Shown: positions 1 to 5,297, counted from the stretch's first letter. The stretch is 64,000 bases of DNA from an uncultured bacterium (GCA_963729625.1 CAVSOU010000008.1:288001-352000), one strand, 5' to 3'. Numbers and translations are program-made. Notes: generated by a model from the sequence alone, not told the origin.

Positions 1-245
1 CCGCCGCTCGCGAACCCCAGGTACGCGGCGATGCGATCGGCAGTCCATCCCTGCCGCCGCAGCGCCGCCGCCTCATCCAGCCGTTTGCCACGCCAGTTGT
101 CCTGCCTGCCGTCCCAGATCTGCCTGCCGATCGTGGCGCGGCTGAACCCCAGCCGCCTGCCGATCTCGCCGTGGGTAAACCCCTGCCGCCGCAGCCGCAG
201 GGCCTCACACCGATCGCCGGCAGAAAAGCTCCGCTCCCCTGACAT
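1..245 (-). CDS. Tandem helix-turn-helix protein (runs off the window edge)
   Basis: Read by hand, not in the ORF track. ATG at 245 after a GAGGAG RBS gives MSGERSFSAGDRCEALRLRRQGFTHGEIGRRLGFSRATI...AAALRRQGWTADRIAAYLGF, with two LRRQG-x-T-x3-I-x3-LGF HTH-like repeats. Confidence 0.7.
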   Translation of the reverse strand, partial: MSGERSFSAGDRCEALRLRRQGFTHGEIGRRLGFSRATIGRQIWDGRQDNWRGKRLDEAAALRRQGWTADRIAAYLGFASG

Positions 246-340
246 CCTCACATCTCCTCAGACCACGAGCTCACGCCGGCCGCGCCGGCGGTCCCGGCGC
301 CATCTGCTCCCATCGGCGGCAGCCGGAGGTGCGAAGCACA

Positions 341-383
341 CTCCGGGTACCCGGAGACCCACCAGAGTGGGTGATAGCGGGTG
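341..383. repeat. REP-like palindromic element, copy 1
   Basis: Perfect palindrome CTCCGGGTACCCGGAG (341-356), hairpin ACCCAC-CAGA-GTGGGT (357-372), tail GATAGCGGGTG shared with the 1421 copy. Confidence 0.75.
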
Positions 384-398
384 GCCGCAGCTCCCCCT

Positions 399-1208
399 TC
401 ACGGCGACACCAGCTCCAGCGCGATCAGCTCATAGGTCAGCACGTCGCCTCGCGGCGCGGTGCCGGTGATGAACGCATAGGGCAGGAACATCCAGCCCCG
501 CACGCCCACCCCCAGGCCCCAGCTATTCAGCACCACGAAGTGGCCGGCCGGCACGCCCGGCAGCGCCGCGTCCGCGTAGCCGCCCAGCACCATGTAGTGA
601 CCGCCCAGCAGTTCCTCATCCGGCCCGGGCAGCGGGATGATGCCCGTCCGCAACGTCTCTGGCGCCTCAAAACTGCTCCACACCTCCAGGGCGATGCCCA
701 CGGAATAGCCGTAGGCCAGCGCCTGCTTCACGGCGGTCACATCCTTGGGCACGCTGTACCACTGCAGGAACCTGCGCCGTTCCGCCGCCTTGAGCGCCGC
801 GGACGTCGGCTTCTCGCCGATCAGCACCGTCGGGTAGTAGGGCCAATCCTTCTCCGGGCAGTCCCCGTACACGTTCACGGCCCTGAACACATCCACAGGG
901 TCACGGCCCGTATCGCCCGTGTTTCCCTCCATAAAGCCGGACCAATAGTACGGGAACGAGCGGCTGCGATGGTACGGCACGCCGACGTGCTGGCGGAGCA
1001 GCTCGTACTCCATCTGGCTCGCGGCGCCATTGCAGGTGCAGGTGCCATAGCTGCCCTGGTCGAACGCCGGCAAAAACATATGCCGCAGGTCCACGCTCGC
1101 CGGCAATACGACCCCGGTGTCGTGTTCCACCTGCAGGGTGCGCAGCGGCACGCGGCCCTCGCGCAGACGATAGCCGAGTCCTCGGCCTCCGGGTGTCGCC
1201 AGTGCCAT
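399..1208 (-). CDS. Papain-like C1A cysteine peptidase
   Basis: LPASVDLR, DQGSYGTC (oxyanion Gln, catalytic Cys), GGHYMVLGGY (His), LNSWG (Asn). Start moved to ATG 1208 behind GGAAGAGGAAG. Confidence 0.9.
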   Translation of the reverse strand: MALATPGGRGLGYRLREGRVPLRTLQVEHDTGVVLPASVDLRHMFLPAFDQGSYGTCTCNGAASQMEYELLRQHVGVPYHRSRSFPYYWSGFMEGNTGDTGRDPVDVFRAVNVYGDCPEKDWPYYPTVLIGEKPTSAALKAAERRRFLQWYSVPKDVTAVKQALAYGYSVGIALEVWSSFEAPETLRTGIIPLPGPDEELLGGHYMVLGGYADAALPGVPAGHFVVLNSWGLGVGVRGWMFLPYAFITGTAPRGDVLTYELIALELVSP

Positions 1209-1283
1209 CAATCTTCCTCTTCCACCAGTAGCGGTATGGTCATCGCATCCTCCTCGCCTTCGATATCCCGGCGTGAACGCCGC

Positions 1284-1304
1284 GGGTACCCACAAGAGTG
1301 GGTG
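1284..1304. repeat. REP-like palindromic element, copy 2
   Basis: GGGTACCCACAAGAGTGGGTG, intergenic. Confidence 0.75.
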
Positions 1305-1420
1305 TCCTCACCGATGGCCTAGCGGTGGCCTTCAGGCAGCCTTCGCCTACATGCTTCCTGCGAGTAGTTGCGGTATGCCATGCGGCGCCGGCCCTCCTGC
1401 GACCACAGTCGCCGGGTACC

Positions 1421-1451
1421 GGGTACCCACAAGAGTGGGTGATAGCGGGTG
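1421..1451. repeat. REP-like palindromic element, copy 3
   Basis: GGGTACCCACAAGAGTGGGTGATAGCGGGTG, intergenic; another GGGTACCC at 1494-1501. Confidence 0.75.
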
Positions 1452-1522
1452 ATGCTGCCATCCTTCCGCAGATGGAGGCCTCAAGCATGTAGCGGGTACC
1501 CGGTCCCCGCCGGCGGCGCGCA

Positions 1523-2323
1523 TCACGCCGCCTCCAGGTCGGCCTTGAGCAACCAGCCCGAATAGTGGCTGGTATGGCAATGGATCCAGTGCGGCGTCTG
1601 CAGCCCGTCCAGCCCCACCATCACGCCCGCCGTCAGCAGCACCACCCGGCGGCTCAGATGGTCCGGCGCCTGCTTCAGCGCGCAGTCCACCGTCGTCTTC
1701 AGCCGCGTGGCCGGCCGTCCCAATGCCCGCAACCCGTCCAGACTGCGGGCCAGCTCGTCCCCGTCCACGTCGCCGGTGATGCCCGGCACGCTGAGCGTCC
1801 AGCTGAACTGCGCCAGGGCCACATACGGCCACACGCCGATCGACGCGGGACAGGCCTCCCCCGGGCAGGCCAGCCAGAGCGGGTAGGCGGCCAGCCGCGT
1901 GTCGGTCAGCCGGTGCAGCGCCCAATCCTGATTGCTATACAGCAGTGGCCGGAAGCCCGCCGCCGCCTCGCAGGTGCGCAGGAAGGCCAGGACAAAGGCC
2001 GATTCCTCCGTGCTCCCTTCCGGCGTCTCGAAGTCGCCGGCCGCCAGGTCGCCGGGCAGCCAATCCCCTTGCCCCACCACCGTCTGCACGAAATGCGCCG
2101 CCTGCCCCGCCGCGTCGCCCAGCTCCGGTCGCGTGAAACAGTAGGCGCCGCGCACCAACCCCGCCGCCTTCGCTCCCGCCCAGTTGTACACAAACTGTGG
2201 ATCGCTGACCGACAACCCTTCCGATGCTTTGATCAGGGCAAAGCTAAAGCCATCCTCCTTCACCCGTGGCCAGTCGATCGCGCCCTGCCACAGGCTCACG
2301 TCAATCCCCTTCAGTGCGGGCAT
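1523..2323 (-). CDS. GH25 muramidase/endolysin with C-terminal SH3b-like domain
   Basis: GIDVSLWQGAIDW, IKASEG, GAYCF, DxE motif (GDFE), VPGITGDVDGD; tail ending HWIHCHTSHYSGWLLKADL resembles bacterial SH3. Confidence 0.92.
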   Translation of the reverse strand: MPALKGIDVSLWQGAIDWPRVKEDGFSFALIKASEGLSVSDPQFVYNWAGAKAAGLVRGAYCFTRPELGDAAGQAAHFVQTVVGQGDWLPGDLAAGDFETPEGSTEESAFVLAFLRTCEAAAGFRPLLYSNQDWALHRLTDTRLAAYPLWLACPGEACPASIGVWPYVALAQFSWTLSVPGITGDVDGDELARSLDGLRALGRPATRLKTTVDCALKQAPDHLSRRVVLLTAGVMVGLDGLQTPHWIHCHTSHYSGWLLKADLEAA

Positions 2324-2370
2324 CCTGGCCCACCCCCATCCGTGGTATCTGTGTTTCAGGAACCACCACT

Positions 2371-2691
2371 CTACTCACCGCCGGCCCATCCCGGCCGCTT
2401 GGTGATCAGGCCCGCGCTGTAGACCAGCAACCCCACGATCGGGAATGCCAGCTTATCGGCGATCGTCTCGATCCACTCACGCGCCAGCAGGCTGCTAAAG
2501 CTGATTGCCGACGCCACCAGGTACAGCACGAGTCCCAGCACGACCACGGCCAGCAGCAGTACCAGCGTGTCCACCAGCCCGCGGCCCAGGAACCGCGCCG
2601 CCTCGCCCACTTGCCGTTCCGTTGTCGTCTCCGTCACCGTCGTCGCCGCCGGCTGGCTTGCCGCCGGCTTGAGCATCGTTTGATCCAGCAT
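2371..2691 (-). CDS. Small two-TM membrane protein, holin-like by position
   Basis: Two hydrophobic segments, GGAAGGAG RBS 9 nt before ATG, directly upstream of the endolysin. Confidence 0.6.
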   Translation of the reverse strand: MLDQTMLKPAASQPAATTVTETTTERQVGEAARFLGRGLVDTLVLLLAVVVLGLVLYLVASAISFSSLLAREWIETIADKLAFPIVGLLVYSAGLITKRPGWAGGE

Positions 2692-4186
2692 CCGCGCTCA
2701 CTCCTTCCGCGTCGACACGCCCAATCTCTTCCGCCACGTCCACGTTCTGACCGGTCATGCCGAAGAACAGTCGCATCCCCGTCTCGCGGGAAATCCAGCC
2801 CGCCGCGTTCGCCGCCAGCATGGCGCTCATGATCTGGCTGCCGGCCGTGGCCAGATCCTTGTTGTCGCTCGGCACCAGCTCGGGGAAGATGATCTGGAAG
2901 CTCCGATCCGTGCCGGCGCCCAGCTTGCCCGCCTTGACCGCCTCGTCCAGTGCGCGGTCCAAAATGGCCCGCAGCATCAGGCCAAAGATGTCCTGCCGCC
3001 GCTCGAACTTGCGGAACGTCGGCAACCCCATTTCCGATGCCGTGGCCCGGTTCGTGTTGCCGCCCTCGCCGAGGTAGTGCTCGGGCAAACCGGCCCCCAT
3101 GGCGATCATCATCTTGATCGCCCGGCCGTCCTCCGCCACCTCGTCGGCGTGGATCTGCGGCTGCACCGCTGTCCAGCTCTCGCTCTCGTTATGCACCACG
3201 ATGCTGCCCGGCTCGGGCGCGTAGGCATACTGCATGCGCTTGCGATCGATCGTCTTCGCGTCCGCCCCCGCCAGCTTGATGTCCCAGAGGAAGGCGCCCT
3301 TGTACTTGTTGATGCGCACGCGGTCGGTCAGCCAATCCCGATAGCGGCGCAGCCAGGGCAAGAGTGTGGCCAGGTCGCTCTTGCCGCGCTTGGCGTTGGA
3401 CACCGAGTTGATCTTGAACTGGATCACGTCCTCACCAGCCGTGAACCACTTGCCCGCCATCACCGCGTCACCCGGGTAACTGGCGCCGGTGGGCTCCAGG
3501 GTCGGTGCCGGCGGCTGCACGCCCCCGATCGGAGCCGTGGCGCTCCACATGGCGCCGCCCGGACCGACGGGCCGCTGGTGGAAGCGGATCGTACGCTCGA
3601 TGTTGTCGGGGTCCGTCTCGATCTGGTCGATCAGGCTGGGGTCGATCTGCGCGATCTTCACCGTGCCGTTGAACCTGTTCACGAAGAAGCGGATGAACTG
3701 CTCGCCATAGAGCGAGAGCTCCGTGCAGAGCGAGTACACCCGCGTCGGCATGTGGTTGTCCGGGTCTTCCCAGAAGGCGTCGATGAGCCGCTGCACCTTT
3801 TTGTTCCGGGCCGTCACCGTCACCCCCGTGCCGAGCACGAAGTTCGTCATCAGCTCCACGATGTAGCTGGCGATGGGGTTCGCGTTGAACTGCTCGTAGC
3901 ACTGGTTATGGATTTCCAGGTACGTGCTGGGAATGACGTCCTTCTGGTACCAGTTATCCGAGAGCCGGCGCCAGTAGTAGTCCTCCTCCATGCCGGCACC
4001 CAAGCGGCCCCAGTAGTAGTCTTCCTGCATGGGGAACGTGGCATTCGCCGTCGGGTCCATTTGGCCCTCAATCAGCCGGCGCGATGCCGTGTCGTCAACC
4101 GTTCCGGCCATATTCGCCGCAATCGCGACGCCGAGACGAGTGCGGGGCGCCGCGATCGCATCTTCCTTGGCCCGTCGCGCGCCCAT
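2495..4186 (-). CDS. Phage portal protein
   Basis: Portal-like motifs NPIASYIVELMTNFVLGTGV, LSLYGEQFI, RGKSDL, GLPEHYLG-x3-NTNRATASEM, GWISRET. Start at ATG 4186 after GGGAGG. Confidence 0.85.
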   Translation of the reverse strand: MGARRAKEDAIAAPRTRLGVAIAANMAGTVDDTASRRLIEGQMDPTANATFPMQEDYYWGRLGAGMEEDYYWRRLSDNWYQKDVIPSTYLEIHNQCYEQFNANPIASYIVELMTNFVLGTGVTVTARNKKVQRLIDAFWEDPDNHMPTRVYSLCTELSLYGEQFIRFFVNRFNGTVKIAQIDPSLIDQIETDPDNIERTIRFHQRPVGPGGAMWSATAPIGGVQPPAPTLEPTGASYPGDAVMAGKWFTAGEDVIQFKINSVSNAKRGKSDLATLLPWLRRYRDWLTDRVRINKYKGAFLWDIKLAGADAKTIDRKRMQYAYAPEPGSIVVHNESESWTAVQPQIHADEVAEDGRAIKMMIAMGAGLPEHYLGEGGNTNRATASEMGLPTFRKFERRQDIFGLMLRAILDRALDEAVKAGKLGAGTDRSFQIIFPELVPSDNKDLATAGSQIMSAMLAANAAGWISRETGMRLFFGMTGQNVDVAEEIGRVDAEGVSADAGSNDAQAGGKPAGGDDGDGDDNGTASGRGGAVPGPRAGGHAGTAAGRGRAGTRAVPGGVGNQL

Positions 4187-4201
4187 ATGACCTCCCGTTA
4201 T

Positions 4202-4217
4202 TAGTACGTATGTTCTA
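4202..4217. promoter_or_regulatory. LexA (SOS) box-like operator
   Basis: TAGTAC-GTAT-GTTCTA, one mismatch from TAGAAC-N4-GTTCTA. It lies between the -10 element and the RBS of the portal gene. Confidence 0.7.
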
Positions 4218-4229
4218 TTAATCAAGCCC

Positions 4230-4257
4230 AGCATAGCACGAGAATCATGCTTGTCAA
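4230..4257 (-). promoter_or_regulatory. Sigma70-type promoter of the portal operon
   Basis: TTGACA (4257-4252), 16-nt spacer, TGn-extended TATGCT (4235-4230), in an AT-rich patch. Confidence 0.75.
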
Positions 4258-4550
4258 GGAAAACATTGGGAGGTTCAGTGCCTTAGGGTGTGAAGCGTCG
4301 TTATTTCCGGCCTAATTTGCGCTTTCTTGCAGGCAGTGGATCCGCGTTTGCCGATCGAGCAGATGCCATGGCGATCTGCTCGCACGCCGATACATCGCCG
4401 CGGACCGCGCAGGCGCTGCCTGAGTACTTCTCGAAGTCACTGCCCTCTTGCCTGTATCATCACTGACGGTGATCTGCCGAATGCCGGATCTCTTCACTCG
4501 CCGGGGTGCGCGAGAGCAATCCGTCGAGGTTCTAGCGGAGCGCCGTAACA

Positions 4551-5297
4551 ATGAGTAGCCTGTTCCTGTTTATCTCGAGTTTCCTGGCCTCGGCCGTGGA
4601 AATGGTGGAAGCGCTGACGATCGTCCTTGCCGCCGGTGTCACACGTGGCTGGCGGTCTTCGCTCATCGGCGTGGCGGCGGGCCTCGCGGTGCTGTCCGTG
4701 ATCGTGGCCGTGCTCGGTCCCGCCCTCACCATCATCCCCATCGACGCGCTGCGACTGGTAGTCGGCGCTCTCCTGCTGACGTTTGGCATTCAATGGCTGC
4801 GCAAGGCAATCCTGCGCGCCAGTGGATATAAGCCGCTGCACGACGAAGCGGCGATCTTCGAGCGCCAGCGAGCCGCCGCCCTCGCCTCCAGCCCCGAGAT
4901 ACGCGCTGGACTGGACTGGTACGCCTTCACGCTTTGCTTCAAGGGCGTGCTGCTCGAAGGGCTCGAAGTGGCCTTCATCGTGGTCACGTTCGGGGCAAGC
5001 GCCAACAATATCTGGTTAGCGACAGTCGGCGCCGTGGCCGCCCTGGTCGTCGTGCTGGCCGGCGGCGTCGCCGTCCATGCGCCGCTTAGCCGGGTACCGG
5101 AGAACACGCTCAAGTTCGTCGTCGGCTTGCTGCTCAGCACGTTCGGCACCTTCTGGGCCGCCGAAGGAGCCGGCGCCGACTGGCCCGGGTCCGACGGCGC
5201 TATCCTGGGCATCCTGGCATTCTACGCGCTGGTTTCACTGGCATTCGTTCGCACCCTCGAGCGCCGCCGTGCGCTTCGGCTCAGCGTGGCGGCATAG
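4551..5297 (+). CDS. COG4280/UPF0016-like membrane protein (putative metal transporter)
   Basis: Internal repeat FLASAVEMVEALTIV / FKGVLLEGLEVAFIV; about 7 TM segments. Confidence 0.75.
   Translation: MSSLFLFISSFLASAVEMVEALTIVLAAGVTRGWRSSLIGVAAGLAVLSVIVAVLGPALTIIPIDALRLVVGALLLTFGIQWLRKAILRASGYKPLHDEAAIFERQRAAALASSPEIRAGLDWYAFTLCFKGVLLEGLEVAFIVVTFGASANNIWLATVGAVAALVVVLAGGVAVHAPLSRVPENTLKFVVGLLLSTFGTFWAAEGAGADWPGSDGAILGILAFYALVSLAFVRTLERRRALRLSVAA

Follow-up and report, generated by a model that had tools for sequence, protein, structure and literature searches.

The DNA examined here, a stretch of 64,000 nucleotides from an uncultured bacterium (GCA_963729625.1, CAVSOU010000008.1:288001-352000; hereafter the window, corresponding to C8:288001-352000 of the genome G000), opens with a unit of phage-type genes on the minus strand, which is headed by a portal gene with a putative LexA box behind its promoter and continues beyond the left edge of the window as an array of virion genes. 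The origin of this array and its predicted control by the SOS response are our subject. Its first features, with positions counted from the first letter of the window, are the following:

4551-5297, plus strand: host membrane gene of the OFeT_1/GDT1 type, divergent from the portal gene; the same gene flanks the portal in a congener (G001)
4252-4257, minus strand: -35 hexamer TTGACA of the portal promoter, invariant in four of four aligned upstream regions
4230-4238, minus strand: extended -10 element TGcTATGCT, with a 16-nt spacer to the -35 hexamer
4202-4217: putative LexA (SOS) box TAGTACGTATGTTCTA, an imperfect palindrome with the arms TAGTAC and TAGAAC
4191-4196, minus strand: ribosome-binding site (RBS) GGGAGG, 4 nt before the ATG at 4186
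2495-4234, minus strand: open reading frame (ORF) of the portal gene; the likely start, ATG at 4186, gives a gene at 2495-4186 and a protein of 563 aa
2371-2691, minus strand: small membrane protein of 106 aa, "holin-like" by position only
1523-2323, minus strand: GH25 muramidase of the endolysin type, 266 aa (PF01183, 116 bits; phrog_291, E 3e-36)
399-1295, minus strand: papain-like (C1) cysteine peptidase, ORF of 298 aa (PF00112 Peptidase_C1, 20.6 bits, just below the cut-off of 20.7; phrog_16701, E 5.6e-6)
3-251, minus strand: helix-turn-helix (HTH) protein of 107 aa, whose gene ends 72 nt past the left edge at C8:287928 (HTH_23, 34.4 bits)

The portal protein matches phrog_10963 (E 1.9e-42) over residues 83-506, that is, over most of its length as expected for a member of this portal family, and Pfam SPP1_portal with 30.5 bits (cut-off 25.5), the latter covering residues 117-199 only; many columns are invariant in an alignment of 11 portal sequences. 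A sequence-only reading of the window had already placed this gene first in its unit, with its own TTGACA/extended -10 promoter, and a host membrane gene on the other side, as is indeed the case. Of the downstream genes it named, the GH25 enzyme, the papain-like peptidase (just under its cut-off) and the HTH gene are present, whereas "holin-like" describes no more than the position of the small membrane gene.

The portal promoter is the sole sigma-70-like site in positions 1-4700 of the window, for which shuffled sequence gives a mean of 0.7. The palindrome lies 12 nt 3' of the -10 element and 5' of the RBS, at a spot where a bound repressor would block the promoter. GAAC-N4-GTTC is the LexA motif type of Firmicutes, Actinobacteria and Chloroflexota, and boxes of the T(A/T)GAAC-N4-GTTC(T/A)A type are present in this genome upstream of lexA (TTGAACATACGTTCTA, after a TTGACA promoter), recA (TAGAACGCACGTTCAA), dnaE2, uvrB and recN; those of lexA and recA sit just past candidate -10 elements (the latter picked by eye), and that of uvrB (TAGTACGTGTGTTCTA) differs from the portal box in one spacer base. 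No site in the genome is identical to TAGAAC-N4-GTTCTA; 13 differ from it by a single mismatch, compared to 1, 2, 1, 5 and 2 in five genomes simulated with a first-order Markov model; dnaE2, uvrB and recN are among the genes adjoining the real sites. In a LexA matrix trained on the boxes of lexA, recA, dnaE2, uvrB and recN only, with the portal site excluded, the portal box scores 26.5 bits and ranks second genome-wide, after the operator of lexA itself, and the matrix scan detected no further LexA site above 12 bits in C8:250-293k. Since lexA and recA share the box type and the portal box ranks this high, the earlier premise that TAGTAC-N4-GTTCTA represents a LexA-type box is correct for this organism, with the palindrome being imperfect; by these motif statistics, the site upstream of the portal is predicted to be a real LexA operator.

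The upstream region was aligned for four sequences, namely the genome of the window, two further members of its genus (the congener G001, and G003; G002 and G004 are the other members compared below) and an IMG/VR contig (L056). Conserved islands are found in all four and comprise a block GTTTTCCTTGACA, the -10 element (TGCTAyGCT), the box and the RBS, while the DNA 5' of the -35 hexamer does not align among them.

Two other LexA-like sites deserve mention. In three distant portal loci (L063, L081 and L065) a common GCTTG(T/A)ACGTATACTT occurs about 170-195 nt 5' of the portal match. Its sequence is similar to the box of G003 (CTTGAACGTATGTAC) in the left half and the spacer, and it possibly represents an older regulatory element that gave rise to the LexA box. 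In the genome of the window, a two-mismatch site TAGAACCTTTATACTA lies 30 nt 5' of gyrB (C14:131,779) and is not among the 61 matrix sites above 12 bits.

The array itself occupies the minus strand of C8 from about 292.26k down to 252.2k, or about 25 kb without a nested element of 15.2 kb, with all genes co-directional; it is bounded by the portal promoter beside the host OFeT_1/GDT1 gene and by the gene of the large terminase (terL) beside a host S53 peptidase gene. The left edge of the window thus cuts the operon, and for this reason the earlier description of a "stand-alone" cassette is wrong: protease-capsid, tail, fibre, adaptor and terminase genes follow on the same strand. Nor is the system "split" in this genome, in which the genes are contiguous; a dispersed arrangement (lone portal, lone terminase) is met only in relatives. 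After portal, small membrane protein, GH25 muramidase, C1 peptidase and HTH protein come three small ORFs, a fusion of head protease and major capsid protein (808 aa; Phage_capsid_4, E 1e-42; phrog_4523) and, separated from it by two small ORFs, three GDSL-domain proteins, two of which match the tail family phrog_15881; the remaining one, whose C-terminus is gp53-like, is the tail fibre. These are followed by an adaptor (weak SU10 adaptor match, below the cut-off), alongside which five proteins of unknown family (305, 153, 76, 154 and 148 aa, the last being p148) are encoded, by p719 and p190 (719 and 190 aa, both of unknown family), by a Y-family polymerase and by terL. As no tape-measure, sheath or tail-tube family was seen among the array ORFs, the tail of the encoded particle is likely to be short. 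Profile searches of the array ORFs outside the nested element revealed no integrase, repressor or replication family either.

Between p190 and terL, the Y-family (impB/mucB/samB) polymerase gene (600 aa; L001:2106-3908, that is, C8:270,106-271,908) is accompanied by two small ORFs; all three are missing from the same spot in the congener, which makes them cargo in the array.

In the congener G001 the array lies between the same host genes, in the order p525-OFeT, portal, small membrane protein, GH25, p158, p225 and capsid, then fibre, adaptor, p148, p719, p190 and terL, and finally the S53 peptidase. A cytosine methylase gene follows the one for the membrane protein, and no C1 peptidase (for which G001 gave no match), HTH gene or GDSL tail gene was found in this array. 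Over the 17 array genes shared by the two genomes, dS amounts to 0.43-0.83 and dN/dS, the ratio of nonsynonymous to synonymous substitution rates, to 0.13-0.63 (portal 0.139, capsid 0.26, adaptor 0.29); six flanking host genes have dS values of 0.52-1.09. Shared flanks and a host-like dS fit inheritance of the array along with the chromosome from the time when the two species separated, rather than a recent arrival.

The region just 3' of the portal is variable and has the appearance of a hotspot for insertions: lysis genes are found there in both G000 and G001, in the latter also the methylase, and nothing in L056. The portal of L056 is directly followed by p158 and the capsid gene, a layout that identifies what the window has at this spot (the genes for lysis, the peptidase gene and the HTH gene) as cargo inserted after the portal. 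In G002, the interval between portal and p158-capsid unit (L053:1105-3140) contains a gene for an IS200/RAYT-like transposase with repeated GGATCCGC units on both sides, followed by a second LexA box of 22.5 bits, 22 nt before an ORF whose C-terminal part matches p158. In G003 the separation is complete, the portal with promoter and box standing alone amid ordinary genes on an 18-kb contig and the capsid module on another contig. As regards the empty site, the OFeT and S53 homologues of G002-G004 are on different short contigs with other neighbours.

This variability bears on a narrower explanation, in which LexA would control only a short programmed-lysis unit from portal to HTH gene, and the capsid and tail genes would be regulated independently as a unit of their own, perhaps by the HTH protein. 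That lysis genes, C1 peptidase and HTH gene are variable cargo, of which L056 has none between portal and p158 and G001 only a part, speaks for it, as does the LexA box before the p158-capsid unit of G002, which shows that the two parts can be separate. We nevertheless consider it improbable, since the genes of the HTH protein, p89, p158 and p225 overlap or abut, neither a promoter-like site scoring at least 10 of 12 nor a convincing terminator was found between HTH and capsid genes, and a portal without capsid has no known role. In the structural part of the array, too, the promoter scan gave no further site of at least 10 of 12, and transcription of the whole array from the portal promoter as a single transcript would be consistent with this anatomy.

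The absence of an own integrase, repressor or replication gene, the host-gene flanks, the same place in the congener and purifying selection together lead us to read the array as a chromosomally retained system. More precisely, we find it rather probable that it represents a host-retained, SOS-inducible defective prophage or a particle-plus-lysis system resembling a gene transfer agent (GTA). As in a GTA, the virion gene set comes without any replication, integration or excision family of its own, which holds likewise for the related clusters of the genomes G013 and G047, while of the attributes of an intact prophage the array lacks an integrase next to an attachment site as well as lysogeny and replication modules, and its terL is split. 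The earlier suggestion of a host-retained, DNA-damage-controlled module instead of an intact prophage has in this respect turned out to be its better-supported half, owing to the box, the shared flanks and the lack of an own integrase.

The gene set is not confined to the genus, whose members contain portal (4/4), capsid (4/4) and terminase (3/4). Among 61 relatives, a portal was found in 22, a capsid in 22 and a terminase in 27, and a sample of the phylum contained the portal in 80 of 401 genomes, including 25 of 29 in one family (f22) and 5 of 5 in another (f15); many other families have none (0 of 8 to 0 of 25). Two unpublished genomes, G055 and G018, are counted here as well, and no claim is based on them alone. 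The portal is therefore not sporadic within the lineage, and most of the matching genomes have it at a single place. In a collection of species genomes, 124 stretches encode portal relatives, of which 80 were kept, nearly all from Ktedonobacteria or other Chloroflexota; isolates of Thermogemmatispora, Dictyobacter, Tengunoibacter, Ktedonosporobacter, Ktedonobacter and Ktedonospora are among them. At least one more gene of the set is present within the fetched flanks of 43 of these loci, in co-directional, divergent or convergent orientation, and 37 have the portal alone, eight of the latter with the full 10 kb on both sides. Scattering is seen in isolates: in a Ktedonobacter isolate (L124) portal, capsid and terminase genes, all open, are about 170 and 672 kb apart, the portal being flanked on one side by TetR, P450 and S58 genes and on the other by genes of the oxidoreductase, SDR and GntR types, and in a Thermogemmatispora isolate portal and capsid are divergent neighbours with the terminase about 380 kb off. 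Elsewhere, the terminase has recJ and a VKOR gene as its two neighbours (G005), a lone portal is found mid-way on a 50-kb contig (G006), and clusters abut host genes with no integrase (G013, G047). All 26 portal pairs compared have a dN/dS between 0.035 and 0.32. The portal tree has 72 rows; six rows were dropped because their aligned translation contained a stop, and four because their matches were short. In this tree, all five Thermogemmatispora rows form one clade and four of the five Dictyobacter rows another, the deep branches being unresolved. Lack of mobility and lysogeny genes, family-wide recurrence, purifying selection and scatter in some genomes are what one would expect of domesticated phage particles, not of a family of prophages.

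A number of observations weigh against a retained particle system, however, the first of them concerning terL. A 388-aa ORF (C8:252202-253368) is the C-terminal part of the large terminase, identified via an intact 517-aa homologue in the genome G044 (Terminase_6C match), residues 73-509 of which align to C8:253530-252226 and residues 40-89 to C8:268836-268687, ending with RQMGKNEL (Walker A motif). At the Walker A codons the gene is cut by an insert of 15,208 bp (C8:253,480-268,687; L018:1480-16687), which contains genes for a large serine recombinase (starting 64 nt from the junction), an excisionase-like HTH protein, a primase-polymerase, a radical-SAM protein and a terminase of its own; no capsid genes are found among its genes. 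In G001, terL is cut at the same codons by a related serine-recombinase element (integrases 57% identical, dS 1.7), so that the gene is broken in both genomes. In the genome of the window this nested element carries the sole integrase and the sole primase of the locus, and the DNA to the left is thus no normal integrase-bounded prophage. That an uninterrupted terL exists in nature is evident from a soil-metagenome contig (run X2, depth 2.4; a relative, of another strain), in which position 1479 of L018 is joined exactly to 16688 and 15,208 nt are skipped. A single 40-kb prophage with a central serine integrase, which we had considered as well, was rejected in view of the cut in the Walker A motif, the discrete 15,208-bp element and this junction without it.

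Secondly, the array of G001 is damaged: its protease-capsid gene is interrupted by an insert of about 47.5 kb, the break lying between residues 738 and 736 (C9:1,045,424 to 1,092,996; L032, L033, L138, L139), and adaptor, p148 and p719 align in several pieces and frames, which could be due to either decay or assembly error. Thirdly, the GC content at third codon positions (GC3) of the array, 0.83-0.92, lies at the 95th to 99.9th percentile of the genome. In clusters of the type of the Rhodobacter capsulatus GTA (RcGTA), GC3 is no different from the host and GC1 and GC2 are raised, according to PMC7360931; in comparison, the composition of the array looks less settled than that of a classical GTA. 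Raised GC3 had been considered as a hallmark of GTAs and was dropped as such for the same reason. Further points on this side are two IMG/VR contigs which are classed as viral and carry close relatives, an isolate genome (L126) with a portal only and no capsid or terminase match, and the flanks of lone portals, which share no synteny between genera in L111/L118 and L124/L133 and only about 1 kb downstream in L123/L090 and L086/L090, indicating that these loci have moved. A LexA box was found upstream of just one of 75 distant portal loci (0.24% of control windows reach 14 bits), which makes the SOS wiring specific to the lineage of the window. Purifying selection by itself would also fit an active phage, and the gene calling, based on ORFs and a GC3 filter, is crude.

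Within the 47.5-kb insert of G001, a strong LexA-type box of 21.2 bits was noted (L033:4633).

The split terL, the breaks in G001, the raised GC3 and the viral labels in IMG/VR keep alive a competitor, in which a normal temperate prophage, still active or disabled only recently, would have its late operon directly repressed by the host LexA, related phages having integrated at one and the same site in both genomes (G000, G001). A full and contiguous set of virion and lysis genes, GC3 far above the genome median and close relatives on contigs classed as viral are all in line with it, and the nested element could be one prophage within another. Still, we regard this explanation as unlikely: outside the nested element no integrase, repressor or replication gene was found, both host flanks are common to G001 at a host-like dS, and terL is cut at identical codons in both genomes. 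An ordinary prophage also sits badly with the high prevalence within families, with the portal being at one place in most matching genomes, with genes spread over hundreds of kb in isolates and with the lack of a close relative among cultured phages, the best of 11 records having 30% identity. If the array were merely a disabled prophage, it would remain a well-documented case of LexA-controlled late genes and of an element nested in the terminase gene of another.

The same damage could be taken as the signature of an inert, decaying prophage remnant with a fortuitous or relic LexA-like box, for which the split terL, the split capsid gene and fragmentary alignments of G001 and the isolate retaining nothing but a portal might be cited. 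Such a remnant appears very improbable to us given that all 17 shared array genes are at a dN/dS of 0.13-0.63 with a dS of about 0.5, that so many portal columns are invariant across 11 sequences, and that box, promoter and RBS, the box being second in rank genome-wide, are conserved while the surrounding DNA diverges.

Returning to the host-retained particle system, we infer the following course of events. In an undamaged cell, LexA would sit on its operator (about +6 to +21 of the predicted transcript) and block the promoter. Upon DNA damage, RecA would become active, LexA would cleave itself and the array would be transcribed, after which heads and short tails would assemble, and the cell would be opened by membrane protein and muramidase, perhaps together with the peptidase. 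Packaging requires terL, here interrupted, and whatever DNA the particles might contain would have to be loaded in one of two ways: the nested element might excise first, or the two-ORF terminase of the element might use the capsids.

This second terminase (C8:257,243-258,725; L018:5243-6725) consists of an ATPase ORF of 260 aa and a nuclease ORF of 229 aa. It is probably not a frameshifted pseudogene, as the two ORFs match separate PHROG families over their full length (phrog_7579 and phrog_27743) and a separate AAGGAG and ATG are present for the nuclease ORF; with these matches, it looks like a large terminase naturally composed of two subunits.

A broader proposal can be made, tentatively and as a possibility rather than an expectation. 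Ktedonobacteria and allied Chloroflexota may carry an unrecognised, domesticated particle system derived from a probably short-tailed phage (portal, protease-capsid, adaptor, p148, p719 and terminase), which would be mostly vertically inherited, with a single-copy portal where counted, and scattered over hundreds of kb in several isolates; in the genus of the window it would have been wired to the SOS response through the LexA operator and have gained a lysis cassette, and terL would be the landing site of an element acting either as a particle pirate or as an excision switch that gates packaging. If this were true, a GTA-like device would exist in a phylum where none is known. Few lineages are known to possess GTAs or other phage particles domesticated by their hosts, and with every new case the views on DNA exchange between bacteria and on the self-sacrifice of cells have changed. 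A full-text literature search yielded no publication on a system of this kind in Ktedonobacteria, and with relatives of the gene set in cultured Thermogemmatispora, Dictyobacter, Ktedonobacter and Ktedonosporobacter the idea is directly testable.

Compared to known systems, the array shares with RcGTA of the alphaproteobacterium Rhodobacter capsulatus the phage-derived head and tail genes without integrase and replication genes, as well as a chromosomal location, a distribution over much of a clade and, in the gene pairs compared, purifying selection. In some genomes the set is spread over several loci, which is reminiscent of the "multilocus genome" of RcGTA described in PMC5026251. Agents of this type are under the control of host regulators and need lysis for their release, as stated in PMC11841831. 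The array differs from RcGTA, to which it has no detectable sequence relationship, in holding the lysis genes itself, in its predicted direct control by a LexA operator and in its raised GC3. Its tail is probably short, that of RcGTA is long.

PBSX of Bacillus subtilis is an SOS-inducible defective prophage, a fixed cluster of virion and lysis genes which kills and lyses its producer and has its own repressor, a late activator and a contractile tail. Fixation in the chromosome, combination of virion and lysis genes and induction by DNA damage (predicted for the array) are common to both; in contrast to PBSX, no repressor was detected in the array, LexA apparently acts directly, and the gene family extends over families and classes, not over one species group. 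A host LexA box over the promoter of a lytic or lysis function is also known from Bacillus phage GIL01, tum of coliphage 186, CTXphi and colicin operons, in which LexA controls the gene for an early regulator, an antirepressor or a toxin. The array resembles them in having the LexA box at the promoter and in a predicted induction that would need no cleavage of a phage repressor, but its LexA-boxed gene is the first structural gene of the virion. A portal-headed structural operon switched by the operator of the host LexA would be an unusually simple induction circuit.

Of the minor genes in the window, the small membrane protein gave no family match in Pfam and PHROG-type profile searches; it has a single strong hydrophobic stretch (residues 38-70), and a homologue is likewise encoded 3' of the portal in G001. 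The tail of the portal ORF (about the last 69 codons, window positions 2495-2691) overlaps the start of the membrane ORF by 197 nt in another frame and encodes a low-complexity Gly/Ala/Asp sequence past the conserved core, which ends at about residue 495; a comparable overlap of about 150 nt exists in G001. The HTH protein additionally has a weak Terminase_5 match (20.1 bits, cut-off 20.3), a regulator and a small terminase being its candidate roles.

The spacers between these genes contain copies of a dispersed repeat, identified by repeat scan and, for the hairpins, folding:

351-383: dispersed repeat copy with a short hairpin
1283-1304: dispersed repeat copy with a short hairpin
1419-1451: dispersed repeat copy, forming a longer inverted repeat together with 1494-1512

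The REP-like hairpins reported earlier for these spacers are accordingly real as repeats, the core CCCAC-N4-GTGGG having 19 copies in the genome, seven of which are within C8:274-290k, in or next to the cluster; as hairpins they are short and weakly better than shuffled sequence (fold z-scores -1.1, -2.6 and -1.1).

Finally, a 267-aa protein of the nested element (L018:2303-3106; phrog_22961, function unknown) has a 49% identical paralogue in the same genome at C10:502,436-503,100, the aligned part of which begins just 3' of the fourth-ranked LexA box TAGTACATAAGTTCTA; the pair may represent an uncharacterised SOS gene family.

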